Shown: positions 5,101-62,461, numbered from the stretch's first letter. The stretch: 64,000 nucleotides of DNA from an uncultured cyanobacterium (GCA_963718615.1 OY970368.1:1024001-1088000), one strand, 5' to 3'. Notes: generated from the letters alone by a model not told the origin. Translations and numbers: made by a program.

Positions 5101-5638
5101 GCTCACCCTGATCGAGCCAACGCACAACAGGCTTGTACTCCCATTCTTCTGAGGATTCGTTGTAGCTCAGGACTCGTTGACCCTGAAGCTGAGGATCATC
5201 GATCCTCACTAGCCCATCTTGGGTTTGCACCAAGGTATCGCCCGTCAGGCACTCGTCGATGACATAGACCTTAAACCGACACTGCACTGGTGCAAACTGG
5301 GCTTTCTCGATCAGCTCCCGGATATTGTCCACACCGGTATTGCTCGCCGCATCAATTTCAATCACGTCCAGCGCATTGCCCCGCACAATCGAGCGGCAGG
5401 CTTCGCAGGTGCCACAGGGCTGAGGCGTCGGGTGGTCGCCCGCTTGACAGTTGAGCGACTTGGCCAAAATCCGCGCGCTAGAGGTTTTTCCCGTGCCTCG
5501 GGGACCTGTGAACAGATAGGCCGGCGCGATGCGCTCTTGCAGGATAGCGTTCGTTAGCGTCGTTGCGATCGCCTCTTGACCCACCAGGTCCCGAAACGTC
5601 TGCGGTCGATATTTGTGGTGGAGCGGTTCGTAGGCCAT
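2120..5638 (-). CDS. dnaX: DNA polymerase III subunit gamma/tau, intein-containing
   Basis: MAYEPLHHKYRPQTF, Walker A GPRGTGKT, EIDAASNTG, IDE|intein|CHMLSSAAFNALLKTLEEPP, SRC motif, Pro/Ala-rich linker. Likely start ATG 5638 (ORF track extends to 5704). Confidence 0.97.
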   Translation of the reverse strand: MAYEPLHHKYRPQTFRDLVGQEAIATTLTNAILQERIAPAYLFTGPRGTGKTSSARILAKSLNCQAGDHPTPQPCGTCEACRSIVRGNALDVIEIDAASNTGVDNIRELIEKAQFAPVQCRFKVYVIDECLTGDTLVQTQDGLVRIDDPQLQGQRVLSYNESSEEWEYKPVVRWLDQGERQTLFIKTTHRTIQCTGNHLIRTDQGWVAAKDVKEKTRILSPVPVDVGCLSTNSVLMGESVDFPQGTNFEEISTANGTTIFKPFFGKQNHYDRSVPVDAENYLQSQNFCKRREKGFRALIPIGVDIPIKKVMEFGINERTISQNVLAISLPVSKDSFTAPYLATALFPIPMPTAVSHGWHGPTEQSKKHGWNTKPTDCLSSGPRYGWPQIVDMALYLCAVAPPVIPNCVKSTVWLSQRGHASGSPRIGWIESLQREEHGGTWMTDHSPSHLQVAPLFNSTQKAFQNPKQSWSQLGSRAWDIQQKRSLTCDPTHKNAITTSPWELNQHEDGCETIKSTQFPQWSTSFEEVLSVERSTIEQVYDIEVEDNHNFVANGLLVHNCHMLSSAAFNALLKTLEEPPDRVVFVLATTDPQRVLPTIISRCQRFDYRRIPLESMVDHLGMIATAEGIQIEPEALTLVAQVAQGGLRDAESLLDQLSLLPPPVSIDAVWDLVGAVPERDLFSLVEAIATNHPETVLDRARHLMNRGREPLIVLQNLASFYRDLLIAKTAPTRNDLVAITPSTWEQLIEFAQHLDLGTILRGQQHLRSSEVQIKNTTQPRLWLEVTLMGLLPSAMQSAQPVVSPSTGGFAASAAPVSVSSTPATPVVVPAPPPPPTVVQQSVVPAAATIPAVPVASSLSSAPASHPAVALTVEPPPAAQPYSVPQAAQPHSVPQSEFDLEDIWQRAIANVEYRSTQMLMRQQGQLLKFTGTAAIVGITAQWMGNIQGKLPAIEAAFARVASQPIKVKLEPVIPSVETEGMVQTAPSQSVSSQSVSSQSAPPHLAPPQPAPARPAPAPPVPASPPRPVHEPTAIAQALPPELTPPPASSLVQSEIVQPEAMVSRAAVQTVVGVQGSTLDAVAFNEATFNGTSDQSRLAAVAPLRPTWDENELMRAAKSLAQFFNGEIVTDDGFVAGMASLDSESAIATAASMEILLEPDEGSTEAEGEDDDVPF
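3962..5251 (-). mobile_element. DnaX intein, 430 aa
   Basis: Starts CLTGDTLV after VIDE, has block B TIQCTGNHLI, and ends VYDIEVEDNHNFVANGLLVHN followed by Cys+1. 1290 nt. Confidence 0.95.
4044..5024 (-). CDS. LAGLIDADG-type homing endonuclease overprinted in an alternative frame within the intein
   Basis: Uninterrupted ORF (GTG 5060 or ATG 5024) with two CACGCG motifs, LIYGTLLGDGSI and AWWYMDDGSL LAGLIDADG-like motifs, and C-terminal SMEYK. Confidence 0.85.
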   Translation of the reverse strand: MGSSKGRKRKNENTIPCACGCGVLIYQFGVDGRERRFSAGHQFRGNQYGQRDYDLQAILRQAESLRPFCACGCGELLAIPKFLQEKGKGIQSINSYWGRHPYKKGHGIWDKRTDNFTERSGHLSPCIQGLIYGTLLGDGSISYPNAHSRFPRLAWTHGAEQKAWMEHKANRLSILRPKIRLATNRGYGTLSVCCSTACHPQLCEIYRVVKPEGTCKRITPNWLDRITPEGRAWWYMDDGSLSITPAGSPAIQFHTEGFSESETELVAAWLSGLGYTAKAKSYLRSNTQKRYYYISLGAQSARRWLRDHQIYAIPSMEYKFRGGPFC

Positions 5639-5727
5639 GACATCCGAGCATCTTCCTTCATCACTATAAGCAATGGAAGAAAAACTTCGGCAAGCGAGTC
5701 GCAAGCCTTACAAATCCTCAACTTCCA

Positions 5728-5799
5728 TGGGCGATACTGGATTTGAACCAGTGACGTCCTGCTTGTAAGGCAGGCGCTCTACCGCTGAGCTAATCGCCC
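5728..5799 (-). tRNA. trnV: tRNA-Val(TAC)
   Basis: GGGCGATTAGCTCAGCGGTAGAGCGCCTGCCTTACAAGCAGGACGTCACTGGTTCAAATCCAGTATCGCCCA folds as a cloverleaf with anticodon TAC. Confidence 0.97.
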
Positions 5800-5833
5800 G
5801 AAAACTATCGCTGTTCGCAGCGACTGTAGCAGT

Positions 5834-6643
5834 CTAACACAAAAGAGTGAGCAAACAGAGCAATAAAGCCTCCGTCCATTCCACAACCGCACCGTAGGTA
5901 TCTCCGGTATGGCCCCCCAGCTTGCGGTTAAACCAAGAGCCGGTATTGAAGGCGATCGCAAACCCCCCAAACAACATCCCTAGCGCCAACATCCAATGAT
6001 GCAAATACAGTCCCCCCAAAAGTCCACTGAGACCAACTAGAAGCAATAGCCCCGGCCACAGATCACCCGGTTGAAACTCAGCTTTATGAAATGCCCCCTT
6101 GCCTTCGGGTTTGAGATAGGGATAACGAGCGATCGCCAAGACCTGCCCCCACCGCCCCCAGCCTGCCGCCCCCATCAGGGCTGCGGTTCTGGCAATGGGG
6201 TCTAGGGGAAGCGCCATAAGGGCGGAGAACTTCAGCAGTAGGAGGGCGATCGCCGCCATCACCCCAAACGCACCGGCCACACTATCCGCCATCACTGCTA
6301 GTCGTCGCTTAGGATCCATTACCGACAGGCCATCCGCCGTATCCATCGCCCCATCCAAATGCAGCCCCCCTGTAATCGCAATCCACAGCACAACCACCAA
6401 CGCCGTGCGGCAAATCAAAGGCATTTGTAGCTGAGCTAAACCCAAATCTAATAATCCCAACCCCAGGCCCAACCCCACACCAATTAAAGGGGCAAATCGT
6501 GCAATGCGGCGAAAATCAAAGGACTCAACCTGAGGCAAGGGCAGCGCTGTATAAAAGGTCAAACTCGCGAGCAACTGCGAAACCTCCGTCTGAAGCCATC
6601 GACCGAGTCCTTGCCCTTGCTTCAATCGAGGTTGTCCTGACAT
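5834..6643 (-). CDS. cobS: Adenosylcobinamide-GDP ribazoletransferase (cobalamin synthase)
   Basis: [39 protein letters not shown]; multiple TM helices. Start uncertain (6643-6706). Confidence 0.93.
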
Positions 6644-7258
6644 TTCCTGAGTCTCCTTAGCACGGTTACCCCTGGTTTCTCTGACCGTACTTTTACGGAT
6701 TTTCATAAGTACGCAAACTCAAAATCCCGTAAAACACCCCTAACGCACTGCTTAAAAGGCTTCTAGCACAATTTTTGGCAGCACAATCCAACCCTCAGAT
6801 TAAACCTTCTCCGCATTTTAGCGGAACCGACTCACCTTAATCCCGAGCCATAATGAATTCACGACCCCACAAAGACCTTTGTGACCTAAACTTCGCCCTT
6901 TGGCCTATACGGAGGTGCAACCCCTTTTAAGGGTTTATAGTGAGATAGCATTGAGTTTTGTCCTCATGAGGCAATTCTTTATTGTTTCTCTTCCGTGTTA
7001 TCCCTGATTCCGCTTTATCTTTCCCCCAAGATAGTGCGCTCAGGATTCTGCCCCAAAGTATCAAGCCACGGTATCGAGTCCAGGAATTAAGTCCAAGGAT
7101 CGAGCGAAGTGTTTCGACCAAGCCCCCTTTTCATTGGGTTTTGTTGGCGTCGGGGTCTTGAAACTGTCGGGGTCTTGAAACTTAGGTTTCAGGGTTGCTT
7201 CCAGAGCTCTCTCTTTGCTGCACTGTGTTAGTCGCCGTTCGCGCAACTTCTTCGGCCT

Positions 7259-10208
<2,950 letters not shown>

Positions 10209-49868: not shown

Positions 49869-50531
49869 ATGGCCAGTGATGCAATCCTGTGTGTGGATGA
49901 AGTCAGTCTCAAAACGGGGATTGCGGTGTTGTGCGATCGCGACCCCGATCTCGCCCGCCTGGTCGAGCGGCACGGCCATCCCCCCCTCTGGAGCCGCCCT
50001 CCGGGATTTGCAACGCTGGTCCACATTATTCTAGAGCAGCAGGTTTCCATGGCTTCGGCCCAGGCGACGTTTGAGCGACTGCGGGGGGCGATCGCCCTGA
50101 CGCCGGAGGCATTTTTGACCCTGGAGGATGAGTCGCTGCGGGGGATGGGATTTAGTCGGCAAAAGACGGCCTATGTGCGAAATTTGGCGGAGGCGATTCG
50201 GAGCGATCGCCTAGATCTTGATGGGTTGGTGACACAACCCGATGATAGGGTGCGGGAAACGCTGTGTCAGCTGAAGGGGATTGGCCCCTGGACGGCTGAG
50301 ATCTATTTGATGATGGCGCTGGATCGGGCGGATGCTTGGCCCTTGGGGGATTTGGCGGTGCAGTTGTCGGTGCAGCGAATTAAGGGATTAGAGCAGAGGC
50401 CAGACCGGGAGATGTTGATGGCGATCGCTGAGCCTTGGCGGCCTTGGCGCAGTGTGGCGGCGCGGTTGCTGTGGCAAGCTTATTTGGCAAAAGAAACGTC
50501 AAGCAAGCTCGGAGTTAGCGCTTCACGTTGA
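49869..50531 (+). CDS. alkA: DNA-3-methyladenine glycosylase II (HhH-GPD)
   Basis: ILEQQVS, LKGIGPWTAE HhH, WPLGDL, WRPWRSVAA. Confidence 0.88.
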   Translation: MASDAILCVDEVSLKTGIAVLCDRDPDLARLVERHGHPPLWSRPPGFATLVHIILEQQVSMASAQATFERLRGAIALTPEAFLTLEDESLRGMGFSRQKTAYVRNLAEAIRSDRLDLDGLVTQPDDRVRETLCQLKGIGPWTAEIYLMMALDRADAWPLGDLAVQLSVQRIKGLEQRPDREMLMAIAEPWRPWRSVAARLLWQAYLAKETSSKLGVSASR

Positions 50532-50648
50532 GAACCAAGTTGGATTGAGTCGCAGGTTTTTCCGCAGTTACGGTTGCGACTGGATGATTTGATGCGATGA
50601 TTCTCAAATTCTAGAGGCGAATCTGGCGGGTTTGGGAGCGTATCGCAG

Positions 50649-51843
50649 TTGAGACAAACAATTTTTTTGATGGCACTGCTCTATTCGGTGCAGGCTTGCA
50701 GTAGCAATCCGGGGCTGGCGATGTTGCCGATCGCCGAGTTTCTCAAAGCAGATTTGGGATTGACTGCGGCCCAGGTGATGGGATTTCGGGCGATCGCCTT
50801 CCTCCCCTGGTTCCTCAAGCCGCTGTTTGGATTTGTCGCCGATAGCTTTCTATTTTGGGGATTCCGGTTTAAGGGGTATTTGGTGGCTTGCTATGCCGGG
50901 GCGATTTTTGTGTTTTTGGGTCTGAGTCGGGTGGGGGACTATTCCTATGGGGGTCTGTTAGGGGGGATTGTAGCGGTGTCGGGGGCGATCGCCTTCTCCG
51001 ATGTGGTTGCCGATAAGCTGATGATCACCCAGGGAAAGGCTACCGGAACGACGGCTCGGTTGCAGGGCGCACAGTGGGTGGGTCTGGGCCTGAGCGGTGC
51101 GGCGATCTTGCTTTTGGGGGGTTGGTTGGCGGATCGGGTATCGTTGTCGGTGGTGTTTGGCTTGAGTGCTATCGGGCCTGTCTTGGGAATTTGGGGCGTT
51201 TTGCAGTTGCTGAAAGAACCGCGTCAACAGGCGAGTGCGGTGCTGGGGGATGTGCGGACGACGATGCGCAGTCTCTGGAAAACGATCAGGCAGCGTCATT
51301 TCCTGCTGGTGATGCTTTTGATTGTATTGCTGGGTTTTTGTCCGATTCCGCCAACCTATTTTTATCAGCGGGATGCATTGCAGTTTAGCAATACGTTGAT
51401 TGGTCAACTCAATGCGGTAAGTTTGCTGGGAACAGGGCTGGGAGCGTTGCTGTTTGGGCGATTGTCAAGTTGGCTTTCCCGTGGCAATTTGGTTTATGGA
51501 GTGGTGGGTTTTAGTGCTATTGCAACTGTGAGTTTGGGCCTGATGCAGGGGGTGGGGAGCGCGATCGCCATTTCTCTCTTCACGGGGGCCAGCACCATTT
51601 GGGCGACGTTGCTGATGTTTGAACTGGTCATTAAAACCTGTCCAGAAGGGGGCGGAGGGAACGGTTTATGCGGTGGCTGTGGCGCTGTCGAATTTGGCGG
51701 CTTCGTTGGGTTTGGTGTTGGGGGCTTGGTTGTACGATGGGGGGCTGAGTTTTGCCAATTTGGCATTGCTGGCAGCAGGAGCAATGGTAGTTTGCTCGGG
51801 GGTAGGGCCGTCTTTGAAGAAAAGCTTGTCGAGATTGCCTTAA
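50649..51843 (+). pseudogene. BT1-family (folate/biopterin-like) MFS transporter with apparent +1 frameshift
   Basis: LPWFLKPLFGFVADS, AFSDVVAD. The family-like continuation AEGTVYAVAVALSNLA lies in another frame after the G5 run at 51648-51652. Confidence 0.7.
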
Positions 51844-51853
51844 AATTCTGCTC

Positions 51854-52984
51854 ATGATTGACCATGATCGTCTCTTCAAAGAACTTCTGACCACCTTTTT
51901 CCTCGACTTTATCGAGCTGTTTTTTCCTGACATTCTCATGTACCTTGAGCCTGATAGCCTCGACTTTCTTGATAAAGAGCTCTTCACCGATGTCACAGCG
52001 GGAGAACGTTATGAGACCGATCTTCTGGTTCAAGCCCGGTTTAGGGAGCAACCCGCTTGCTTCCTGATCCATGTTGAAAACCAGGCTAACCCTCAGAATA
52101 ACTTCGGAAAACGTATGTTCCGCTACTTTGCACGCCTCTATGAAAAATATGATACTCCTATCTATCCCATCGTCATTTTCTCCTACGATAAACCACGTAA
52201 ACGTGCCCCTAAACAATTTCGTGTTGAATTTCCGGGATTCACGGTTAATACGTTTAACTACCGTGTGCTGCAACTCAACCAACTCAACTGGCGTGATTTT
52301 CTCGATCGCCCCAATCCGATCGCCAGCGCGCTTATGACTAAAATGCATATTGAGCCCCAAGACCGACCCAAGGTCAAAGCCCAATGTCTACGCCTCTTGG
52401 TGACACTCAGATTGGATCCAGCCAGAATGCACTTGATCTCTGGATTCATCGATACCTACCTACGCCTGAACAGCCGAGAGAAGCGCCAGTTTCAAGCAGA
52501 GCTTGGTAACATTGAACCAGAAGCACAGGAGGCAGCCATGCAAATTGTCACCAGTTGGATGGAAGAAGGCATCGAGCAGGGGCTTCAGCAGGGGCTTCAA
52601 CAGGGGCTTCAGCAGGGGCTTCAACGAGAGGCGGGTCTTGTTGTGAAATTTCTGGAGCGGCAGTTAGGGCCATTGCCTGAGGCGCTGAAACAGGAGGTTT
52701 ATCGGCTGGATGCAAAAGCGCTGGATGCCCTAGAGGATGCCTGTTTTGAGATGAAATCTAGTGCTGAGTTGGCAACCTGGCTGATGATATTTCCTTCGCC
52801 TCGACAGCGTCGTGTAGTGGTCGTTCGTTTATTGCAAGAGTTTTTGGGGGAGCCGCTTTCTGCTGAAAGCCAGGAGCAGCTAGGCGGTCTCAAAAAGAGG
52901 CAGTTACAACGGTTAGGTTCAGAATTTTTGACCTTTGGGTCTGTGGCAGATTTGGAGCGTTGGTTGGCGGCGCAGGCTGGCTAA
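51854..52984 (+). CDS. Rpn/YhgA-like PD-(D/E)xK nuclease with EQGLQQG repeats and two DUF4351-like C-terminal domains
   Basis: DHDRLFKELL, TDLLV...LIHVENQ, RMFRYFARL, MQIVTSWMEEGIEQGLQQGLQQGLQQG. Confidence 0.88.
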   Translation: MIDHDRLFKELLTTFFLDFIELFFPDILMYLEPDSLDFLDKELFTDVTAGERYETDLLVQARFREQPACFLIHVENQANPQNNFGKRMFRYFARLYEKYDTPIYPIVIFSYDKPRKRAPKQFRVEFPGFTVNTFNYRVLQLNQLNWRDFLDRPNPIASALMTKMHIEPQDRPKVKAQCLRLLVTLRLDPARMHLISGFIDTYLRLNSREKRQFQAELGNIEPEAQEAAMQIVTSWMEEGIEQGLQQGLQQGLQQGLQREAGLVVKFLERQLGPLPEALKQEVYRLDAKALDALEDACFEMKSSAELATWLMIFPSPRQRRVVVVRLLQEFLGEPLSAESQEQLGGLKKRQLQRLGSEFLTFGSVADLERWLAAQAG

Positions 52985-54435
52985 GCTTTAGCTTTTTTTA
53001 GGGCTGAAAGGCGCAGTTTGCTCCCCACAGTTTCGAGAAAGACTCTCAGCATCAGTTGACCATTGGCATCTCTCCAGGGTTGCCAAATGAGGAACATTTT
53101 GAGGGCGGTCCAAAGCCCTAGAAAGGGATGGCCGTTGTGCCAGTGGGCGTTGGCGATCGCTCCCATAGCAAGCGCCTCGACCTGCCGGTAGCCAAATTCT
53201 CGACTAGTCTGCTGGGCTTCTTGGGCATAGTCTAAAGCCTCTTGATATCGATGTATTTTTCCTAAACATCCACTCAAGGCTACTTTTTCATGGGCAATAA
53301 TTCGCAAATCACCAACAGATTGTGCATAAGCAAGTGCCTGCTCAAGATAACTGAGTGCTGCTTCCGCCTGATCGAGATGAAAGCAGTACAGAATGCCGAT
53401 GCTATTAAAAATGCTTCCAAGAAATATTCGATTGTCAGAGTTTTGCGCCAGTTTCAAACTTTTCTCAAAACAAGTTAGTGCTTTTTTATGCTGACCCAAC
53501 ATCAGGTAACAAGACCCAAGATTGTGAAATATTTCTTCTAGTTGCTCACTGTTCTCAAGGTTTCTACTAATTTTCTCTTCTATTTTAAGATATTTTATAG
53601 CAAGCTGATATTTTCCCCATGTGGAGTAGAGATTACCTAACTCATTTAAAATATGGCTATTTAGGCTCGATGATCGATCGATCTTGCTGAGTATTAATGC
53701 TTGCTTTAGGTAGGTCTCAGCTTGTTTATATTTTAAATTGATAACGTCTAGTCTGGCAAGGCCACAAAGTGATTGAATCTGTAAATTGACGTTATGGATA
53801 CAACTAGCAGCTTGCAGTTGCGTCTGATAAAAATCATTGGAGATCCTGTAGCTTCCCTGAGTTCTATATGCATTAGCTAAGCACCCAAAAGCTCTGACAA
53901 TAAGAGACTGGTCTTGTAAGATATTTTCTTTTTTGAGGAGTTCTTTGCCATAGAAAATTGCCTGTTTAATCTCTCCAATCGCTCGGTAGGAAACCGCTAG
54001 ACCACACAAACAAATACCACTTACCTCTACGGAAAGCTTGTTCAGTAAACGACTGTAGAGGTCAATGGAGATTTGATAATAGCCCCAAAGAGATAATTGC
54101 TCATGAAGAAGTTGCTGTTGTGGGGCGACAGGGATCTGTAAAATTTGCCAAGCGACTTCCCAGGCTTCCACCTCGCAGCAATGGTGAAAGGCTTCTAAAT
54201 ATCCCCGCACTTGCTCAAGCCCCGTCGCATCTACCCTTGGGCGATAGTCCACCAACCAAGATTCAGCCGCAGCGTAATGAGCCAGTTGCCAATGAGAGAC
54301 TTGTTGAGATAGGGGATAGAGCTTTTCTAAGGCTAGGGCAATTGTTTCCGAGAGTTCTCCTGGAGAATTTAGATTTAGCTGACATATCTCCGCATCTAAA
54401 TCCGCAATAAGCACATTCTGACTTTGATCCTTCAT
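52981..54435 (-). CDS. TPR-repeat protein (NB-ARC-associated type), copy 2
   Basis: N-terminal EQVRGYLEAFHH block followed by multiple TPRs. Confidence 0.88.
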   Translation of the reverse strand: MKDQSQNVLIADLDAEICQLNLNSPGELSETIALALEKLYPLSQQVSHWQLAHYAAAESWLVDYRPRVDATGLEQVRGYLEAFHHCCEVEAWEVAWQILQIPVAPQQQLLHEQLSLWGYYQISIDLYSRLLNKLSVEVSGICLCGLAVSYRAIGEIKQAIFYGKELLKKENILQDQSLIVRAFGCLANAYRTQGSYRISNDFYQTQLQAASCIHNVNLQIQSLCGLARLDVINLKYKQAETYLKQALILSKIDRSSSLNSHILNELGNLYSTWGKYQLAIKYLKIEEKISRNLENSEQLEEIFHNLGSCYLMLGQHKKALTCFEKSLKLAQNSDNRIFLGSIFNSIGILYCFHLDQAEAALSYLEQALAYAQSVGDLRIIAHEKVALSGCLGKIHRYQEALDYAQEAQQTSREFGYRQVEALAMGAIANAHWHNGHPFLGLWTALKMFLIWQPWRDANGQLMLRVFLETVGSKLRLSALKKAKA

Positions 54436-54456
54436 ATTTCAGCTCTTTTTGTTAAT

Positions 54457-55896
54457 TTATGTGCGTGATTTATAGAGGAAGGCAAAGATAGTTTCTAAAG
54501 TTTTCTTCAGCATAAAGCGGCCATCTGCACTGGCCCAAGGGGGCTGTATCCAAAATGCCATGAGGATTGTCAGGATGCCTTTAATATGATGTCCATAACA
54601 CCAGTAGGCATTGGCCAGACCTGCTGTAGCAAACGATTCCATCGGTCGGTGATTGATAGATCTAAAAATATGGATTGATTGTCTAAGGTTTGAAAATACC
54701 ATCTTTTGGTCTGGATGCCTGAGTCTTGCATAGCAATAAGATAGATTATTTAAGTCGCTGGCTTGACTTATAATATCACCCAGTTTTATCGATAATTGCA
54801 GCAAATCTTGAAAGAGAATGATAGCTTTTTTATACTGACCAGAGCGCGCATAAACAGAGGCTATATTTCCTCGATTTATATATTCTCCCAACAGATCGTT
54901 ACGACTTTTGCTAATCAAAAGTGCTGTTTCTAAATATCTTAATCCAGCTTGAAAATTGTCAGAGTTTACAAGATTTCCCCCTAGATTACTAATCGCTACC
55001 CATTCTTGATGAATGATCTTAGACTGCCGAGCAATTGCAAGTTGTTCTAGTAAATATTTTTCTGCTAGTTCGGTCTTACCTAAGCGCATATAGGAAGAGC
55101 CTAAAAGTCCTAAAATCTCCGTTTTTAGTCTTAAATTAGATAGCTGTAGACTATGATCATAACTTCTTTTGATCCAACTCAATGACTCTTTGAAGTGACC
55201 CCAATCTCCCATGAGACATGCAAGATCAAGCTCAGCTTTTGTAATTTGGTCTAAATTTTCTGACGCTGTAGCCAGCTCCAGCCGACGTAAAAATAGCTTC
55301 CTCGCTTGCTTGTAGTCAGCACCTTGATTTTTGCAATGTCCTAACCCGCTCAGTGTATCTCCATACAGATCAGCATATTTTTGAGATCTGATCAGCTCAT
55401 TATTCAGAATGTGATTATAGTGATTATCCGCCGTTTTAAAGTCACCAAATTTTCGTAAGCAGTCACCAATTTTGAGATGTAGCAAGAGCTGATAGTTAGT
55501 ACTCATATGTTCAAGCAGCTTCAGACCTATTTCTTTTAATTCATTAAAATACCCTTTGCTATAGAGGCGATCGCAAACACTCTGCCGCTCCTCCTCAAAC
55601 TGAATGGGCGTCATAAACAATTGCTCGGCTCTTGGCCAATCTTCCAGTTCAACTAAATGATGAATCGCCTCTAAATATCCCCGTACCTGCTCAAGTCCAG
55701 TCGCATCAGCCCTCGGGCGATAATCCAGCAACCAAGACTCCACCGCCGCATAGTGGGCCAACTGCCAATGGGATAATCGCTGCGGTTGGGCATAGAGGGT
55801 TTCTAGATCTAGACCTGCAACCGCCGAAAGACCACCCGGTTCGTCTAGATTTAAGTCAAAAGCAGTAGCAATTAAATCCTGTTCCAGCAGTTCCAT
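54457..55896 (-). CDS. TPR-repeat protein (NB-ARC-associated type), copy 1
   Basis: EQVRGYLEAIHH block followed by TPRs; GAGGG precedes ATG 55896. Confidence 0.88.
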   Translation of the reverse strand: MELLEQDLIATAFDLNLDEPGGLSAVAGLDLETLYAQPQRLSHWQLAHYAAVESWLLDYRPRADATGLEQVRGYLEAIHHLVELEDWPRAEQLFMTPIQFEEERQSVCDRLYSKGYFNELKEIGLKLLEHMSTNYQLLLHLKIGDCLRKFGDFKTADNHYNHILNNELIRSQKYADLYGDTLSGLGHCKNQGADYKQARKLFLRRLELATASENLDQITKAELDLACLMGDWGHFKESLSWIKRSYDHSLQLSNLRLKTEILGLLGSSYMRLGKTELAEKYLLEQLAIARQSKIIHQEWVAISNLGGNLVNSDNFQAGLRYLETALLISKSRNDLLGEYINRGNIASVYARSGQYKKAIILFQDLLQLSIKLGDIISQASDLNNLSYCYARLRHPDQKMVFSNLRQSIHIFRSINHRPMESFATAGLANAYWCYGHHIKGILTILMAFWIQPPWASADGRFMLKKTLETIFAFLYKSRT

Positions 55897-55963
55897 CACC
55901 CTCACCCTTTTCCCGATACCTGACCTTGCTGCCAAGCGGTTCACCCCCTGGCAAAACCTCAGT

Positions 55964-57430
55964 CTACTCCCGCGAAATCTCACTCTCTATTCGCTTCAAA
56001 TGCTCCCGCGCCACACTCCGCACCAAATTATGCAACTTCAAAACCCGACGGTCCAACGCAAAGGGTTCCTCCTGATATTCCACCAAATAGCGCTGCACCA
56101 GCAGTTCCAAAGCCTGGGCTGTTTGCCCCATTGACCATCCTAGCCGTTGCACCGACCGTGCCCAAAAACGCGGCGGCACCGGACGATTAAACACCGATCC
56201 ATGGCACAACAAAATGTAAGCACCTTGCCCATGACTCGCCAATCGCTTCAGCGTCAGTTCAATGCGATCCTTGACTCGCTGCCGTAAGGATTTGCTGTAG
56301 CGATGCAGCTTGTGCTCCCGCCCTGGTTGTTCGATGCCTTCCCGCTGGGCCGTTTTCTCAATTTCAATAATCTCTTTGCCATACTTCTCCCAATAGGCCA
56401 AGACATTGCCTGAAAATGGTTCCGCTAAAATCTCACAGGCAATAAGCTGAAGCGCCAGGGGATGACCTTCATAGGCCGTTCCAATCCGCTCTAAATGGGG
56501 TCGTCCTAGAGATTCAGGCTGAACACTAATGCCCCGTAGATGAAACAGTCGCAATTGTTGCAGACGGCTGAGGCCGGTGATGGTTTGGCAGTGGTAGCGA
56601 TCGCAGGAGGGGCGATCGCGAAAACAACCGGGCAGATCCTGAGAACTAATAATCAAACGCGGCGCAAAGGCCGGGACTTCCAAACAACGCTTGAAAAACG
56701 CCTCCCAGCCCGAGTCGATAAATTCATTCCAGCCTAGCGCTTCGTTTCCTCTCAGGCAATATTCAAAGGAGTGGAGTTGGATAATGACCGGGCGATCGAC
56801 CAATGCTGCCATGAATCGATTCAGCAGTTTTTCGGCCTCCTGAAGTTCCGAATTCGGAAAGTCTATTTGCCAAGATCGGAAACAATAGGTGACGAATTGG
56901 ACAAATTCTAATCCCTCATCGGGATCGATCCGCAAAATTAATCCTTCCGGCCATCCTGCTTCGCTCAATTGGTCACCCAGATAGAGGCTAATGGCAGTTT
57001 TACCAATGCCAGTGAGGCCCGTTAGTAAGAGCAAGCGGCAGTTGAGTTGGAGATCGGCGAGGAGGCGATCGGTCACCTCTCCCCTCTCGACCCAGTTTTC
57101 TTGGGCCTGCTGAAACTCGGCCTGCTGCTCTTGCAAGGCTTTGGAGCTGTCGATCTCAATCACCTCATGCCAATTGAGATTGAGCACTTCGCAGGTTGCT
57201 CGGACGAGCGTCTCAGAAACGGGCTTCATGGCCAAAAACCGTTGCCAAGTCGCAGGGGAAAAGGCATAGAGCAGATCCCCCTCGGCATTCACCTGGGGCC
57301 ATTGCAGGTGCGGCTCTAGGAGATTACTGATTTCTGTTAGGAGCACGGTGCTAGAACGGGTAAGTTCTCGGTTTTTTATGGCTTGGAGAATGAGGGCTTG
57401 GCCGGTTTTCGAGAGTTTTAATCGTCCCAT
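55964..57430 (-). CDS. STAND/NB-ARC-type ATPase with N-terminal HTH-like domain and no fused sensor repeats
   Basis: SPATWQRFL...CEVLNLNW N-domain, Walker A GLTGIGKT, GHPLAL (GxP), winged helix ending LHNLVRSVA. Confidence 0.82.
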   Translation of the reverse strand: MGRLKLSKTGQALILQAIKNRELTRSSTVLLTEISNLLEPHLQWPQVNAEGDLLYAFSPATWQRFLAMKPVSETLVRATCEVLNLNWHEVIEIDSSKALQEQQAEFQQAQENWVERGEVTDRLLADLQLNCRLLLLTGLTGIGKTAISLYLGDQLSEAGWPEGLILRIDPDEGLEFVQFVTYCFRSWQIDFPNSELQEAEKLLNRFMAALVDRPVIIQLHSFEYCLRGNEALGWNEFIDSGWEAFFKRCLEVPAFAPRLIISSQDLPGCFRDRPSCDRYHCQTITGLSRLQQLRLFHLRGISVQPESLGRPHLERIGTAYEGHPLALQLIACEILAEPFSGNVLAYWEKYGKEIIEIEKTAQREGIEQPGREHKLHRYSKSLRQRVKDRIELTLKRLASHGQGAYILLCHGSVFNRPVPPRFWARSVQRLGWSMGQTAQALELLVQRYLVEYQEEPFALDRRVLKLHNLVRSVAREHLKRIESEISRE

Positions 57431-57869
57431 ATCACACAGATGGCAATCAAGTCAATCGTCATTTTTGAGTTTATGAACAGGGGGCGGGCTGGAGAAATTC
57501 CAAAATCTGAGATTGGCGGGTCTCAGGAGTTGTCCTGTAAATTAATTCGCATAAGGTTCAGAAGTTTTGTGAGATCTTCATCATAAGCAAAGAGTGAACA
57601 TTAATTTGCTTTTGAAGTCTTTCAAATCTCTGAATTTGGCTCAAGAGCTCCCCCTCTTGTGGTCTATTTTTCAGTAACTTAATTTTTTAATTGTTAGCCC
57701 CCAGCAATTAACTGACCTAATATAGCCTGCCAGGGCGTAAAAGCTCAGAGATTAGAGGTTAAAAACATCTCTCAAAGATTTGTACTTGAGTTTAACTTGC
57801 AAAGGACTTGATTCTTCTTCGATGGCTGCGATCATAATCTACAGTTTCTAACTAACACGATTTAAGTTC

Positions 57870-58160
57870 ATGAAGAACAAGAAGTTAGTGATGCTATCGA
57901 CGGCTTTTATTTGCTCAACACTTCTCAGTGTTGCTAAACCAGCCTCTGCTTGGTCTGGCTGGAAAAATGTGTATTTAGGTCGCGCAGCTATTGCTGACAA
58001 TAGCAATTATTGGAGGGCAAAAAGCAGACAACCTTTGCCTACTCCACCTTGGGATCGAAATGATTTGTGCAGATGGAAATATGGAAGAGGAGATGCTAAG
58101 GGTAGTCAAGTATTACTCTTGAGTTGGGATACAAATTTCTACTATAGTTATTGGAGTTGA
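57870..58160 (+). CDS. Small secreted Trp/Tyr-rich protein
   Basis: Signal peptide MKNKKLV...KPASA followed by a 69-aa mature region. Confidence 0.75.
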   Translation: MKNKKLVMLSTAFICSTLLSVAKPASAWSGWKNVYLGRAAIADNSNYWRAKSRQPLPTPPWDRNDLCRWKYGRGDAKGSQVLLLSWDTNFYYSYWS

Positions 58161-58302
58161 TGTTAATCTGTGTTCTGATGATTTTCAACATTAATTTAAA
58201 GAAGTAAAAGTATTAGTACCTTCCAGCACAAAGCATAAGGTCTAGAAAAGAGCTCTCCCTATCTTATGATTCCTTTCTGCAAAAAAACTGTTTTTGACAT
58301 AA

Positions 58303-58707
58303 ATGCCACCTCATAGAAAAGATACATCTTCAGGTTTTACAGTTCTTGAGCTTCTTGTCACCTTAGTGATACTAGGGCTTTTGAGTGCTACCTCTATACC
58401 TTTCCTTGCAGGACAAATAGAAAAGGCCAGGAAGGTTGAAGCTATAAATTTCATGAAAAGCTACATGGATAGACAAAAATCCTTTTATTACGAAAACCGA
58501 ACTTTTGCTAGCAATTTGACAGAACTTTCTCTTCCTAGAGAAGGGAGATACTATTATTTCGGTTCGAAAAACTACTCATTTCCAGAAATTAAAGATAGCG
58601 TTTTTTCTTGCATCACAGTGGTTCCAAAATTAATGAATCATGACTCTCTTGGTGGCTGTGTATCAAGTCGAGAACAACTTTATTATAAAACTCGAAGCAC
58701 TGTTTAG
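58303..58707 (+). CDS. Type IV pilin-like protein
   Basis: Prepilin cleavage motif G|FTVLELLVTLVILGLL; two C-terminal Cys. Confidence 0.88.
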   Translation: MPPHRKDTSSGFTVLELLVTLVILGLLSATSIPFLAGQIEKARKVEAINFMKSYMDRQKSFYYENRTFASNLTELSLPREGRYYYFGSKNYSFPEIKDSVFSCITVVPKLMNHDSLGGCVSSREQLYYKTRSTV

Positions 58708-58845
58708 CTATGCATTAATTAGAAAATCTGAGGTAAACTCATTTTCTTGAATATGATACTTTACAGTTAGGCTACTAGAGTTCAGTAAATTCATTTTTGT
58801 GAACTCAGGTGAATTTATCACTCTTTCTTATCTTCTTTTAACTAT

Positions 58846-58926
58846 AGGATCTCTTGCATGGATAATTTCTTAGAGGCTGAAACCCTATTGAATCTGTTGA
58901 ATTTCATGATTTATCCAAGAGATCTA
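58846..58926 (+). repeat. 81-bp MITE-like element, copy A
   Basis: GATCTCTTG...CAAGAGATC termini; 65/81 identical by manual alignment to the reverse complement of 59551-59631. Confidence 0.8.
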
Positions 58927-58965
58927 TCGAATCTGTTCGTCAACCAAGTTAAGAATACTACTTTT

Positions 58966-59520
58966 ATGAAGATCAAATCATCTCTTTTTCTGCTTTTAGC
59001 TCTTACTCCTGTACTGTTCAAGATCCAGCCGTCATCTGCGCAATCTCAGCGTTCTTCTAATACAGCATCATTAGCAGAGATGTCATGCAAAAATATCGGT
59101 GGTAAATTTAGAGTTAAAAATGAAGATATTGTGATAGGGCGTCGTGTTTATACAGGAATCTTGGAGGTAAGCGACTCCGGAGATCCATATACATGGAATC
59201 AGGCAATTGCGATTACTTGCGCTCTAGCCTCTAATGGTTCTCAGCCCAGATTTAGAACTCTTAACTTAGCCTTCGGCATTGCAGATGACCATCCCTATTC
59301 CGTAGGAAAGACAGAAATTAGAATGAAGTTATTTCGAGATGGAGGTTTTTATGAGTCCGTCAATATTAGGCAAGGAGATTCAATCAGGGCTGCCATTAAT
59401 GTAGAAAACATAAGAAGCTTTTCCTTTGAACTAGAGTGTCTTAATGGACGCCCAGCACTAGGAGGGGGTGAAGGGTACTGCCCACCAGTATGGTTTACAG
59501 AAGATCTGCTGACAGAGTAA
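58966..59520 (+). CDS. Secreted hypothetical protein (beta-sandwich, NPCBM/NEW2-like character)
   Basis: Signal peptide MKIKSS...PSSA, FRTLNLAFGIADD, four Cys. Domain call is tentative. Confidence 0.65.
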   Translation: MKIKSSLFLLLALTPVLFKIQPSSAQSQRSSNTASLAEMSCKNIGGKFRVKNEDIVIGRRVYTGILEVSDSGDPYTWNQAIAITCALASNGSQPRFRTLNLAFGIADDHPYSVGKTEIRMKLFRDGGFYESVNIRQGDSIRAAINVENIRSFSFELECLNGRPALGGGEGYCPPVWFTEDLLTE

Positions 59521-59550
59521 AACTTGGTAATTCCACTAGATTTAGTGCAT

Positions 59551-59631
59551 TAGATCTCTTGCATAAATCATGAAAATCAACGGATTTTACAGGGCTTCAT
59601 CCTTCAAAAAGGTATCCGTGCAAGAGATCTA
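59551..59631 (-). repeat. 81-bp MITE-like element, copy B
   Basis: Perfect 13-bp terminal inverted repeats TAGATCTCTTGCA/TGCAAGAGATCTA. Confidence 0.8.
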
Positions 59632-59732
59632 TTTATTCAACGTGAAGTCACACAGAATAAGCATGTCGAACTCTTGTTATATCTCTCTTTCTACAAGAGC
59701 TTTATGCTGAAAATTTTCTAACCTTGAAAGAT

Positions 59733-60446
59733 ATGAACAGAAGGAAGCTTATTAGAATTGGCACATTAGGATCAATCTCTTGTGCAACAGGAATTAATCT
59801 CTATAATCCTCAATCTGTGCAAGCTTTTGGACCACTATTTTCATTGTTTCTAAGAGTAGGACTCTCTTATGCGATTGAAAATGCCACTCACTTAGGTTTA
59901 CAGGGGATGTTAGGTATTTACTATAAAGAAATGCGGAGAAGAGTACAGGAATGGTATGATCGACGCCTAGATGCCCAGTTAGCTCAGCGAGCATTAATTG
60001 AGCAAGATTTTACTGATATCAGGGCAGTAGGAATTCCTAATACATCTTATAAGCATATTTTGATCGGAACCAAACAAGAAGCCTCAGGCTATTACAGTCC
60101 AGCTATAGTTTTGCCACGACTAACAGGACAAGGTAATGACCTAGTAGCTTTTTCAGGGCCAGCAGCAATCGGAATCAGTTATGCAGCTAATTATCTCAGC
60201 AAAACTACTCATATGTCCCTGAAGCAGATTCAATCAGCATTGCTTCCAACTCGACGTCATCTCGATGAATGGCATTCTTGGGAGCAAGATTTTGCGCCTA
60301 TTAGTTATGAGACAGCTACATCCTCAAATGGTGTAACGATTCAATATCGTAGGTCTGGAAAGCACCTGAATGGAAGTGCGGAAATTTTGGTCGGTATCGA
60401 TGTTGGGCACAGACTTAGTTTTTCCGTTGAAGTTCAGTTCGGCTAA
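59733..60446 (+). CDS. Hypothetical protein with Tat-like signal
   Basis: MNRRKLIRIG...SVQA|F twin-arginine-like leader; AT-rich ORF. Confidence 0.7.
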   Translation: MNRRKLIRIGTLGSISCATGINLYNPQSVQAFGPLFSLFLRVGLSYAIENATHLGLQGMLGIYYKEMRRRVQEWYDRRLDAQLAQRALIEQDFTDIRAVGIPNTSYKHILIGTKQEASGYYSPAIVLPRLTGQGNDLVAFSGPAAIGISYAANYLSKTTHMSLKQIQSALLPTRRHLDEWHSWEQDFAPISYETATSSNGVTIQYRRSGKHLNGSAEILVGIDVGHRLSFSVEVQFG

Positions 60447-60885
60447 TCTAGCTTAGGAATTAGTCATCAGAGATGAGAATACTGGACAGTGGGAAGTTTT
60501 ACAGTTGCTAGAGCATTAGATAAGAGAAAGGGGGTAGTGCATTTATGTAAAGGATAAAGAGAAATAGGGTAAACCTACTATCGAAAGAAGGATAAAGGAA
60601 AACAAAGCGTAGCTGCTGTAGTCGGTAAGGATAGAAGACAACCCGGCATAGCTGTTGTAGCAGAAAGGAAAAGATGACCCTAGAACTCACTTGCCCGACC
60701 TGTGGCTCCCACGACATTTCCAAGAATGGAATAACGCGCCGAGGTAAACAGAACTACAAATGCCGAGACTGCAACCGACAGTTTGTCGAATACCCCCAGT
60801 GGAAGCCGAAAGACAAAGACACCCAGAGTTTGGTAGACCTGCTGTTGCTAGAGAAAATGCCCCTGGCAGGGATTGCTAGAGCAAT

Positions 60886-61897
60886 AGACCTGTAGGGAAA
60901 TAAGAGATAATAGTCGGTAGTTGCACGCTGCTCTAGCCATGCTGAACTTAGACCGAATTCTCCGGGATGACCGCCTGTTGCGGGCAATGACAGGACTCAA
61001 TCGCCAAGCATTTGAGAAACTTCTGCCCAGTTTTAGAGAGGCGTATCAGCAGAGTCAGGTGAAACCTGGGGTAGAGCGAAAACGCGCTCCCGGAGGGGGA
61101 CGAAAAGCGACCCTACGAACAAACCGTGACAAGTTGTTTTACATTTTGTTGTACTGCAAATGCTATCCCACCTTCGACTTACTGAGTGTGTTGTTTGACT
61201 TTGACCGTTCCTGTGCATGGGATTGGGTACATGGTCTGCTCCCAGTTTTGGAACAGGCTTTAGGGCTCAAGCAGGTGCTACCGGAGCGCAAGGTACGGAG
61301 CATAGAGGAATTTCTAGAACGCTTTCCAGAGGTGAAAGAAGTGATTTTCGATGGGACGGAGCGACCCGTGCAGCGTCCTCAAGACTCGAGCAAACAAAAA
61401 GAACATTACTCAGGCAAAAAGAAACGGCATACCCGTAAGCACATCACAGGCAGTACGCGAAAAAAGCGAGTGATCCTCCTGACGAAGGCGAGACCTGGAA
61501 AAATTCATGACAAACGACAGTTGGACGAAGAAGACTTGGTGGGCAACATTCCCGATGAAGTTGCTATAGAAGGAGACTTAGGATTTCAAGGATTACAGAA
61601 TGAGTTTGAGAACGTTCATTTGCCGCACAAGAAACCCAAGGGCAAGGAATTAAGCGAACAACAGAAGCAGGAAAACCGAGAGTTCAGTCGGCAACGAGTC
61701 GTGTGTGAACATGCCCATGCAGGCATCAAGCGTTATCGTTCGGTCACAGATGTTTATCGCAATCGTGTGCCTGATTTTGATGACCGCTTAATGCTTAATG
61801 CTGCGGGTTTATGGAACTGGTATTTGGATGCAGCATAAATTGGGCAGAAACATTGGCAAACCTTGTCCTAAAGCGAGTTTTATTGCCCAACAACTCT
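60886..61897 (+). mobile_element. IS5-family (ISL2/IS702-like) element inserted in IS1
   Basis: Imperfect TIRs AGACCTGTAGGGAAATAA/AGAGTTGTTGGGCAATAA; AAT target duplication (60883-85 and 61898-900). Removing it restores the IS1 frame. Confidence 0.88.
60939..61838 (+). CDS. DDE transposase (HTH + DDE_Tnp_4 type)
   Basis: IFDGTERPVQRP, YSGKKKRHT, EGDLGFQG, RVVCEHAHAGIKRY. Confidence 0.92.
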   Translation: MLNLDRILRDDRLLRAMTGLNRQAFEKLLPSFREAYQQSQVKPGVERKRAPGGGRKATLRTNRDKLFYILLYCKCYPTFDLLSVLFDFDRSCAWDWVHGLLPVLEQALGLKQVLPERKVRSIEEFLERFPEVKEVIFDGTERPVQRPQDSSKQKEHYSGKKKRHTRKHITGSTRKKRVILLTKARPGKIHDKRQLDEEDLVGNIPDEVAIEGDLGFQGLQNEFENVHLPHKKPKGKELSEQQKQENREFSRQRVVCEHAHAGIKRYRSVTDVYRNRVPDFDDRLMLNAAGLWNWYLDAA

Positions 61898-62306
61898 AAT
61901 AGGTGTTTCAAGCAGTTGGCTGCAAGATTACGTCAATGCATACTATGAAGCGGTGCCTCAAGAGGTAGAAGTACTGCCCAAAGCGAAAGGGAAGCTGAGA
62001 GTGCAGATGGATGAGCTGTGGTCATTTGTAGACCATAAGGGCAACAAGCAATGGGTCTGGCTCGCGCTGGATGCCGACACCCGAGAGGTGATTGGTTGTC
62101 ACATCGGCGATCCTTCGGAGCTTGGCGAAGCCAATCGTTCCCGAGAATCAGCCAGGGCGTTGTGGGCATCATTACCGTCGGTGTATCGGCAATGTGCCAC
62201 GGTCTATACCGATTTTGGGGAAGCTTACGAGACCGTTATTCCAGCAAAGCGTCATCGTGCGGTCGGCAAAGAGTGTGGTTTGACCAGCTACATAGAAAGG
62301 TTCAAT

Positions 62307-62461
62307 CCGCCCAGCGATTTCATGAGCTTTGAGCTGACGCCACTCAGTTTCAATCAGATTCATCTCGGAGCAATAAGGAGACAGAAAGAAGACAATCAGC
62401 CCCTTCTCCTGCCATTCTGGCCACCGCTTTCGAACGGCCTTACTTTTGTAAGATGAACCAT
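62307..62461 (-). pseudogene. IS630-family transposase, distal fragment
   Basis: Minus strand GSSYKSKAVRKRWPEWQEKGLIVFFLSPYCSEMNLIETEWRQLK, truncated at the junction with IS1. Confidence 0.82.

Follow-up and report, generated by a model that had tools for sequence, protein, structure and literature searches.

A split STAND switch with putative TPR sensors supplied in trans at a cyanobacterial locus

Receptors of the STAND (signal transduction ATPases with numerous domains) class and their NLR (nucleotide-binding leucine-rich repeat) members are generally pictured as a single chain in which the sensor holds the switch shut within the molecule. What, then, does a locus encode whose ATPase stops where the sensor would be expected to begin, and whose candidate sensors lie in genes of their own? 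Such a locus occupies positions 52981-57430 of a 64,000-nucleotide (nt) stretch of DNA from an uncultured cyanobacterium (GCA_963718615.1 OY970368.1:1024001-1088000), referred to here as the window. Three co-oriented open reading frames (ORFs) on its minus strand encode an ATPase, then a first tetratricopeptide repeat (TPR) protein, TPR_A, and then a second, TPR_B. The canonical single chain of effector plus nucleotide-binding oligomerization domain (NOD) plus repeats is not what is found here, as the TPRs stand in separate ORFs, and the same holds in 19 of 20 loci examined elsewhere. We read the locus as a two-part STAND (NLR-like) switch whose TPR sensor is supplied in trans, with two alternative sensors, and with a probable role in conflict surveillance through a transcriptional output; we would put the probability of this reading at roughly 0.6.

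An ATPase that ends at its winged helix

The ATPase gene (55964..57430, minus strand, as are all three genes and their parts below) encodes 488 amino acids (aa), in which a helix-turn-helix (HTH)-like N-terminal domain precedes a nucleotide-binding domain (NBD), helical domain 1 (HD1) and winged helix of NB-ARC type, as judged from the ORF, an AlphaFold2 (AF2) model and Foldseek. The model, built on a 59-row alignment, has a predicted local distance difference test (pLDDT) value of 88 and adopts the NB-ARC-type NBD-HD1-winged-helix fold. Foldseek matches it to Apaf-1 (1z6t, E = 5e-11), NRC2 (8rfh, E = 9e-11) and the NB-ARC domain of NRC1 (8bv0, E = 6e-9, TMt 0.70), with CED-4, MalT (8bob) and the archaeal STAND-TPR protein 6mfv as further fold matches in the Protein Data Bank (PDB). 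Searched by sequence against PDB chains, the ATPase returned only a P-loop-level match (ArsA, E = 0.16), and NCBIfam gave no meaningful match for it and only far sub-threshold TPR matches.

The motifs of a nucleotide switch are largely in place. Across the 59 aligned sequences, the Walker A motif or P-loop (GLTGIGKT, residues 138-145, 56996..57019) is intact in the window, with G138, G141, G143, K144 and T145 invariant. In HD1, the motif EGHPLAL, which we take to be of the GLPL type, has invariant G322, H323 and P324 and at least 90% conservation of L325, and in the winged helix the presumably MHD-like motif LHNLVR has an invariant H467 (56030..56032) followed by N468, L469 and R471, each conserved in at least 90%. 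The stop codon comes 21 residues past His467, the last helix of the model covering residues 468-487, in agreement with the original prediction, made from the sequence alone, of a three-gene run whose ATPase ends right after its winged helix. The Walker B motif departs from the family. Position 220 (56771..56773) is His in the window (LHSFE) where the family has Asp (hhhhDSLE); Asp is present in 54 of the 59 sequences, Gln in one and His in four, these being the window ATPase and its three closest relatives (L050, P0002 and P0004). The nearby Glu223 is invariant and is retained in the window. The Asp-to-His replacement, common to this orthologue group, hints at a switch that may bind nucleotide while its hydrolysis is altered or weak.

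The gene boundary recurs well beyond the window. In a sample of the phylum (401 genomes of 155 genera, E <= 1e-10), homologues of the ATPase were matched in 50 genomes and 32 genera, and in one of the seven genomes of the window's own family, which are 62-93% complete. In 26 of 29 loci, tblastn placed a match to the N-terminal block of the TPR proteins (described below) immediately after the ATPase. With longer flanks, taken from 20 loci of other cyanobacteria in several families, a TPR ORF starting with the block was found directly after the ATPase homologue in 19, the remaining locus running into a contig end after the ATPase. ATPase and TPR genes overlap or are at most 11 nt apart in at least 13 of these 20 loci (longest-ORF coordinates). 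Many of the ATPases returned by protein searches (~465-520 aa) end at the same point, and the longer ones are extended at the N-terminus.

Single-chain relatives locate the boundary precisely. Five fused NB-ARC-TPR proteins (P0097, P0108, P0111, P0117 and P0120; 732-802 aa) share 29-35% identity with the ATPase. In every one of them the block, at residues ~361-560, comes directly after QHNLIR(S/A/D)(V/I)(A/S)YD(L/W)L, i.e. after the winged helix, and the gene boundary of the split form therefore falls exactly at the NOD/sensor junction. In the split form, the block is near the N-terminus in both window TPR genes and in all 23 split TPR ORFs checked at other loci, and the split proteins have an N-terminal leader of their own, ~25-55 residues long, ahead of it. 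A profile of the block matched 570 cluster representatives at E <= 1e-3 among 1.84 billion. Within the best 150 of these matches, the block starts in the first 80 residues in 138, at 110-196 in six (three of them with two stretches) and internally, at 428-588, in another six, which are proteins of 776-980 aa; the ranking favours split forms, since the profile was built from them. Many short block proteins among the profile matches may be fragments, some perhaps truncated by insertion sequences (IS). Judged by these comparisons of sequence, the split is an old, conserved design of the family and not a broken gene.

Variants of the design were also seen. At L056 (1207-10271), two complete ATPase and TPR pairs stand in tandem in one genome, with highly repetitive TPR proteins of 985 and 782 aa. 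Alignment indicates a hydrophobic C-terminus that looks membrane-spanning in the TPR subunits of L065 (4687-6549) and L067 (4637-6475), whereas that of L061 (2695-4797) has its usual ending replaced by an additional C-terminal domain.

Two TPR proteins with a common N-terminal block

TPR_A, the putative first sensor subunit (54457..55896), has 479 aa when counted from the ATG at 55896, whereas its longest ORF (54457-55983, 508 aa) begins with a GTG at 55983. The ATG is the more likely start, because a 1-nt indel in the spacer, seen in comparison with the orthologue and with contigs of three sequencing runs, breaks the frame of the GTG extension. TPR_B, the putative second sensor subunit (52981..54435), has 484 aa. 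Pfam recognizes TPR_12 in the two proteins at E = 1e-18 and 4e-27, together with other TPR families, and the AF2 model of TPR_B (pLDDT 87, predicted template modelling score 0.82) is a continuous all-helical solenoid over residues 25-483 behind a disordered 25-residue leader. The nearest PDB folds of this model are generic TPR domains such as LGN and Rap.

An alignment of the two proteins covers 470 residues at 31% identity and needs 9 gaps (E = 2e-58); this identity is unevenly spread. The N-terminal block (SHWQLAHYAA..ESWL.DYRP...LEQVRGYLEA.HH...WGY) lies at 55483..55830 in TPR_A, where it equals the post-winged-helix segment of the fused relatives, and at 54007..54354 in TPR_B by sequence comparison; it reaches 88% aa identity in its best 40-residue window. 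The C-terminal block (LANAYW...PPW..DG...L..LET; 54460..54684 in TPR_A and 52984..53208 in TPR_B, likewise by sequence comparison) is 35-45% identical, and the cores 12-35%, in sliding windows. In the DNA of the N-terminal block, ~54180-54299 and 55656-55775 agree at 96 of 120 nt, the top of all diagonals; the second-best diagonal is the C-terminal block (66 of 120 nt), and the median of the per-diagonal maxima is 40. The cores are also AT-richer than the ATPase gene, with GC contents of 0.33-0.40 vs 0.50-0.57 and GC contents at third codon positions (GC3) of 0.22-0.40 vs 0.57, in a genome whose GC content is 0.523 and whose ORFs have a median GC3 of 0.60. By GC3, both TPR genes rank within the lowest 6-7.5% among the 2336 genome ORFs of at least 300 aa. 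The features that had first drawn attention to the locus, namely a shared N-terminal block visible even in the DNA, a similar C-terminal block, and divergent, AT-richer interiors, are thus all borne out, the C-terminal likeness being the weaker one. Among the loci, the C-terminal block is confined to TPR_A and TPR_B of the window, L050, L053, L063/64 and L069/70.

Does the block dock the sensor onto the switch? The stronger argument that it may do so is homology, as the block covalently adjoins the winged helix in the fused relatives. A complex of the whole ATPase and the whole TPR_B, each with its own alignment and with TPR_B as the only partner modelled, was predicted with a score of 0.59 (runs 0.61, 0.59 and 0.59), against 0.01 for the best of three controls, a result classed as weak support. 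Contacts common to the runs amount to at least 58%, and the partner has a pLDDT of at least 79. In calibration, 58 of 80 solved complexes passed, as did 2 of 110 mismatched pairs; the passes at 0.60 or below comprise only 7 of the 80 solved complexes and both of these mismatches, and the counts hold only roughly for the ATPase and TPR_B since custom alignments were used. The reading of a sensor in trans is well founded as anatomy, and the model weakly supports a physical complex.

The number of block-bearing TPR genes per ATPase ranges from one to five. Two are present in the window, in the orthologous locus L050 and in L066, while L060 has three TPR ORFs after its ATPase, two of them with two blocks each. 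The largest array, L073 (936-11871 of its stretch; AP018204.1, a Leptolyngbya boryana plasmid), consists of five tandem annotated TPR genes, every one starting with the block, and is preceded by a 965-aa NB-ARC protein whose N-terminus begins like that of P0016, a relative of the purine nucleoside phosphorylase (PNP) type. Within arrays, the block is 0.41-0.62 identical vs 0.31-0.48 elsewhere in the gene, a contrast that is strongest in the window (0.55 vs 0.24). As architecture, these arrays support one switch with several sensor subunits, whose use as alternatives would be a further step; the two TPR proteins of the window most likely act as alternative sensors for one switch. The original prediction had one switch dock several sensors through the block: recurring arrays sustain the several sensors, and the docking itself has block homology and the weak complex prediction in its favour.

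The two TPR genes seem to have a long common history. A scan of genome contigs returned one locus, L050 (JAAUQQ010000169.1), and a scan of metagenome contigs with the TPR_A N-terminus matched 483 pattern stretches with no relative among them. L050 has the gene order of the window, i.e. ATPase, TPR_A, TPR_B and a major facilitator superfamily (MFS) gene, and is colinear over the whole locus, with identities to the window of 71% for the ATPase, 66% over the whole length of TPR_A, 54-59% for TPR_B (read in several frames in a low-coverage assembly) and 64% for the MFS gene. Since L050 shares both TPR genes, the duplication is older than the divergence of the two genomes. In a tree of 21 blocks, those of window TPR_A, window TPR_B and L050 TPR_A form one clade (99/99), in which the two TPR_A copies are sisters (100/99). 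These comparisons point to an old tandem duplication in place that has been kept in the relative. Recent gene conversion between TPR_A and TPR_B was considered and rejected, as codons are identical at 0.46-0.53 of the conserved residues in the block, a fraction not above that elsewhere (0.14-0.80, small counts).

Another feature of the locus is the constancy of its first gene junction. A 67-nt spacer (55897..55963) separates the ATPase stop from the probable TPR_A ATG. It is ~90-94% identical to the orthologous locus and lies within the best-conserved DNA in this comparison (55680..56040; 0.88-0.94 nt identity vs 0.55-0.84 elsewhere), which runs from the ATPase 3' end across the spacer and on through the first ~70 codons of TPR_A. 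Over the first 80 TPR_A codons, the identical-codon fraction among residues conserved with the orthologue is 0.83-0.86 vs 0.30-0.71 in the remainder. A structured RNA in the spacer was not supported, with no Rfam match at E <= 1 over 50000-60000 and a fold that is not unusual (z = -0.59), and scans for promoters and terminators remained at shuffle level (9 vs 8.1 expected and 9 vs 6.5). A recoding fusion of the ATPase to TPR_A by frameshift or read-through was likewise rejected: the two genes are read in different frames, and the 1-nt spacer indel makes their offset in the window unlike that in its relatives. The junction may reflect either nucleotide-level constraint or a recombination tract.

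Mechanism, function and rival explanations

How might such a locus operate? The product of the first gene would combine an output domain, the HTH-like N-terminus, with a nucleotide switch, and those of the second and third genes would be TPR solenoids whose first ~100 structured residues correspond to the segment following the winged helix in single-chain relatives. We propose that the block sits against two parts of the ATPase, its winged helix and its NBD, rebuilding an autoinhibited receptor from two chains, and that a ligand on the variable TPR core would free the latch. The ATPase would then oligomerize and gather its N-terminal domains. Here, the output would be changed DNA binding or transcription, and in paralogous systems PNP, TIR/SEFIR, metallophosphatase or Death-like modules would be fired.

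The relatives of the ATPase offer some indication of function. Pfam identifies PNP_UDP_1, SEFIR/TIR, Metallophos, bDLD3, a CbiA-like P-loop domain, HTH_3 and GerE as swapped N-termini of close ATPase homologues, and EAD8 on one C-terminus; such N-terminal swapping is the pattern that would be expected of conflict systems. Relatives are found on nine cyanobacterial plasmid records. A second, 32%-identical copy of the system is present in the genome of the window itself (L013, C1:1905000-1918000; 2561-10183), where an AbiTii gene stands directly upstream, followed by an ATPase (467 aa), a 103-aa block-only ORF, two DDE_5 transposase genes and a 338-aa TPR remainder. The DDE_5 genes are identical and belong to a 100% direct repeat spaced 1902 nt apart; the sensor gene of this copy has been cut by tandem IS copies. 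Independently of L013, the sensor gene was damaged at L071 (NZ_CP063787.1, a Tolypothrix plasmid; 4890-9074), where the order is ATPase, 149-aa block-only ORF, IS701 transposase and TPR remainder. Among 71 neighbour ORFs of the 20 loci, Uma2 occurs seven times, NurA and CyanoTRADDas_TM four times each and PbeA-like helicases three times; this count was made after removing 6 of 77 ORFs, namely three from L013 (IS or TPR pieces), the MFS gene from L050 and two from L064 (duplicates). In PADLOC, the window TPR proteins match only generic TPR profiles (PDLC01169/01171), C3a156 and, weakly, PDC-M71B, and the matches in relatives are restricted to effector parts (bSEFIR, PDC-M60C and PDC-S60). No system described there matches the core proteins.

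A gene on the plus strand (51854-52984), between TPR_B and the MFS gene, combines DUF4351 with a weak YhgA-like transposase match; its end overlaps the TPR_B stop by 4 nt, and it has no counterpart at this place in L050. Upstream of the ATPase and diverging from it, 57500-62456 is AT-rich (GC 0.31-0.43 up to 59900) and lacks synteny with the orthologue; small ORFs, including a pilin-like one (N_methyl), are followed there by DDE_Tnp_4 and IS1-type transposase genes.

Several other explanations of the locus have to be weighed. Fused relatives at 29-35% identity might suggest that a normally single-chain gene has recently been broken by a stop codon or frameshift, a doubt that the original prediction had raised itself. 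The split form in 19 of 20 loci from several families settles this in favour of the prediction; together with the leader ahead of the block, the N-terminal position of the block in 138 of the best 150 block proteins and a frame relation of the two genes that varies among relatives, which excludes a shared recoding trick, it leaves a lesion hardly credible. More speaks for a cassette model, also part of the original prediction, in which recombination, anchored in the conserved ends, would trade TPR cores among genes or strains. It would account for conserved ends, divergent cores and low core GC3, and for the ATPase/TPR_A junction being the best-conserved DNA against the orthologue. Contigs from sequencing runs aligned to the locus come from a near-identical strain and from diverged relatives, and in one run the contig of a relative reaches 80% or more in the four end blocks alone, its two cores being of the same length but diverged. 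However, the cores are colinear with those of the 71%-identity orthologue, 50-68% identical in TPR_A, and TPR_A and TPR_B themselves align colinearly with only nine gaps. The A and B blocks are sisters, orthologues are closer than paralogues, and the codon identity of A and B is not raised in the block. Nor does base composition help this model: GC3 of the TPR gene is below that of the partner ATPase in 20 of 22 pairs (locus GC 0.32 to 0.52; the loci include kin and are not independent), and since low TPR GC3 is family-wide, AT-richness is no marker of imported cassettes. Exchange of TPR cores by recombination is therefore improbable, and this part of the prediction is not borne out: copy number of the TPR genes does vary, from one to five, but core swapping finds no support in the colinear L050. 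Three other large TPR proteins of the same genome (ORF starts at, for example, C1:1962266, 1983453 and 3119537) also have a lower GC3 in the TPR stretch than in the preceding part (0.37 vs 0.77, 0.56 vs 0.79 and 0.40 vs 0.54), and AT-rich TPR arrays may be a general feature of this genome.

The most serious alternative accepts the split switch and places it elsewhere, as a regulator of transcription in housekeeping or development, comparable to MalT or AfsR, whose TPR proteins would sense an endogenous metabolite or protein and would have no role in conflict. The HTH-like N-terminus, the HTH_3, HTH_31 and GerE domains on relatives, the absence of an effector gene from the operon, the position kept beside the MFS gene in L050 and the lack of a PADLOC system call all fit such a regulator, and AfsR is reported to be a DNA-binding NB-ARC-TPR protein that can be a pure regulator (10.64898/2026.09.02.748808). 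The closest ATPase homologues, on the other hand, exchange the HTH for PNP, TIR/SEFIR, metallophosphatase and Death-like domains; the distribution is patchy (50/401 phylum genomes and 1/7 of the own family); and both TPR genes fall among the lowest ORFs by GC3. Plasmid-borne relatives, the AbiTii neighbour at the paralogous locus and sensor genes repeatedly cut by IS elements point the same way. An ordinary regulator is thus unlikely, if far from negligible, and conflict surveillance with a transcriptional output is probably to be rated above it, though not by much. A broader and more speculative extension of the two-part switch would make the locus an example of an NLR platform with sensors in trans, in which one NB-ARC switch takes interchangeable TPR subunits via a common docking block, duplication of sensors widens detection, the Walker B Asp has been lost and the near-constant junction hints at a regulatory or recombinational role; taken as a whole, we regard it as doubtful.

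Several points weigh against reading the locus as a two-part switch for conflict surveillance. The docking pass is of the weak class, and since solved single-chain NB-ARC-TPR structures exist, it may reflect likeness to them. The Walker B Asp is absent from the window ATPase, and the switch may differ from others or may not cycle. Pfam NB-ARC (PF00931) has no match in this protein at E <= 0.01, the only Pfam match being a sub-threshold AAA_16 (20.4 bits vs a cut-off of 32.6); 43 of the 59 aligned relatives do match NB-ARC at E <= 0.001, and its NB-ARC membership therefore follows by transitive homology. No Pfam HTH matches the window ATPase, and HTH_3 is matched in three of the 59 family members. 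Its N-terminal domain (residues ~1-95, 57146..57430) is helical with an insertion, aligns with the family consensus N-terminus, is homologous to the Xre-type HTH-like N-termini of the family and is modelled with helices at 8-20, 28-38, 59-66 and 73-82 (pLDDT >90). The label HTH-NB-ARC of the original prediction accordingly holds in its second half, by fold and motifs; its first half is plausible and the weakest part of the observation. PADLOC-DB v2 has no match for the window ATPase (0 families) and no profile on the NB-ARC module of nine relatives. The neighbourhoods are not uniformly defensive, and their counts are uncontrolled and include kin; tblastn against phage records gave no match at E <= 1e-10. 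With an operon that lacks an effector gene and an HTH-like output, a plain regulatory role is equally compatible.

Relation to known systems

The closest known proteins are the single-chain AP-ATPase/NB-ARC-TPR proteins of cyanobacteria and actinobacteria. They share with the window ATPase the order NBD-HD1-winged helix, the P-loop, GHPLAL and the MHD-like His, and they have the same post-winged-helix block followed by TPR repeats, as well as HTH-like or effector N-termini. In the window, by contrast, the block and TPR array form a separate protein with a leader, in one to five genes per ATPase across the family, the group of the window has a Walker B His, and a C-terminal block takes the place of the ending 'ELGIPL..EC.EL' of the fused form. 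Avs and bacterial NACHT defence proteins follow an effector-NOD-sensor logic, with N-terminal effectors swapped within a family, and are single chains. The window family resembles them in this logic and in N-terminal swapping, and differs in its split chains and in the absence of a PADLOC profile on the ATPase.

AfsR and MalT resemble the window system in combining a DNA-binding domain, a NOD and a TPR-like sensor, and MalT (8bob) ranks among the best fold matches. AfsR reportedly also has an MHD-type latch (10.64898/2026.09.02.748808). Unlike the window system, both are single chains; their DNA-binding domain is of the SARP or LuxR kind and their regulons are known, and a sequence-level family match to this type was not obtained in Pfam, NCBIfam or PDB-chain searches.

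If the switch and the sensor do meet as two proteins, the system would offer a simple setting in which to study autoinhibition and activation in trans, a case in which the range of recognition grows through duplication of sensor genes alone and a natural template for re-targeting NLR/STAND switches. Surveys that define bacterial NLRs by a fused repeat domain would miss the family. The impression behind the original prediction, that such a system had not been described, agrees with a full-text literature search: supplementary tables and subscription journals aside, no description of the split was returned, and none of the papers listed used the term 'split NLR'. The accessible portions of the papers compared, which include a cyanobacterial sigma-factor paper (PMC11119718) and a preprint on bacterial NLR-associated amyloid motifs (10.1101/2020.01.06.895854) besides PMC7159879 and PMC8195603, do not describe an NB-ARC ATPase whose TPR sensor is conserved as a gene of its own, although their supplements may list such neighbourhoods.

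The TPR protein of the family is already catalogued. The PADLOC-DB profile PDLC01169 ('TPR repeats containing protein') matches the block and first repeats of TPR_B (138.8 bits), of the L060 TPR protein (263 bits) and of the fused P0111 (residues 452-663); it names no system, and no profile for a partner ATPase was matched. The conflict systems of Kaur, Burroughs, Iyer and Aravind (PMC7159879, PMC8195603) share with the window family the components bDLD3, EAD8, TIR, PNPase, calcineurin-like phosphoesterase and AP-ATPase with TPR, and they differ from the window locus in their vWA-MoxR partner. One arrangement described there comes close to the split, in that the AP-ATPase-TIR has a gene of its own and the TPRs belong to a vWA protein, and it constitutes a partial precedent for an NTPase and its TPRs on separate chains.

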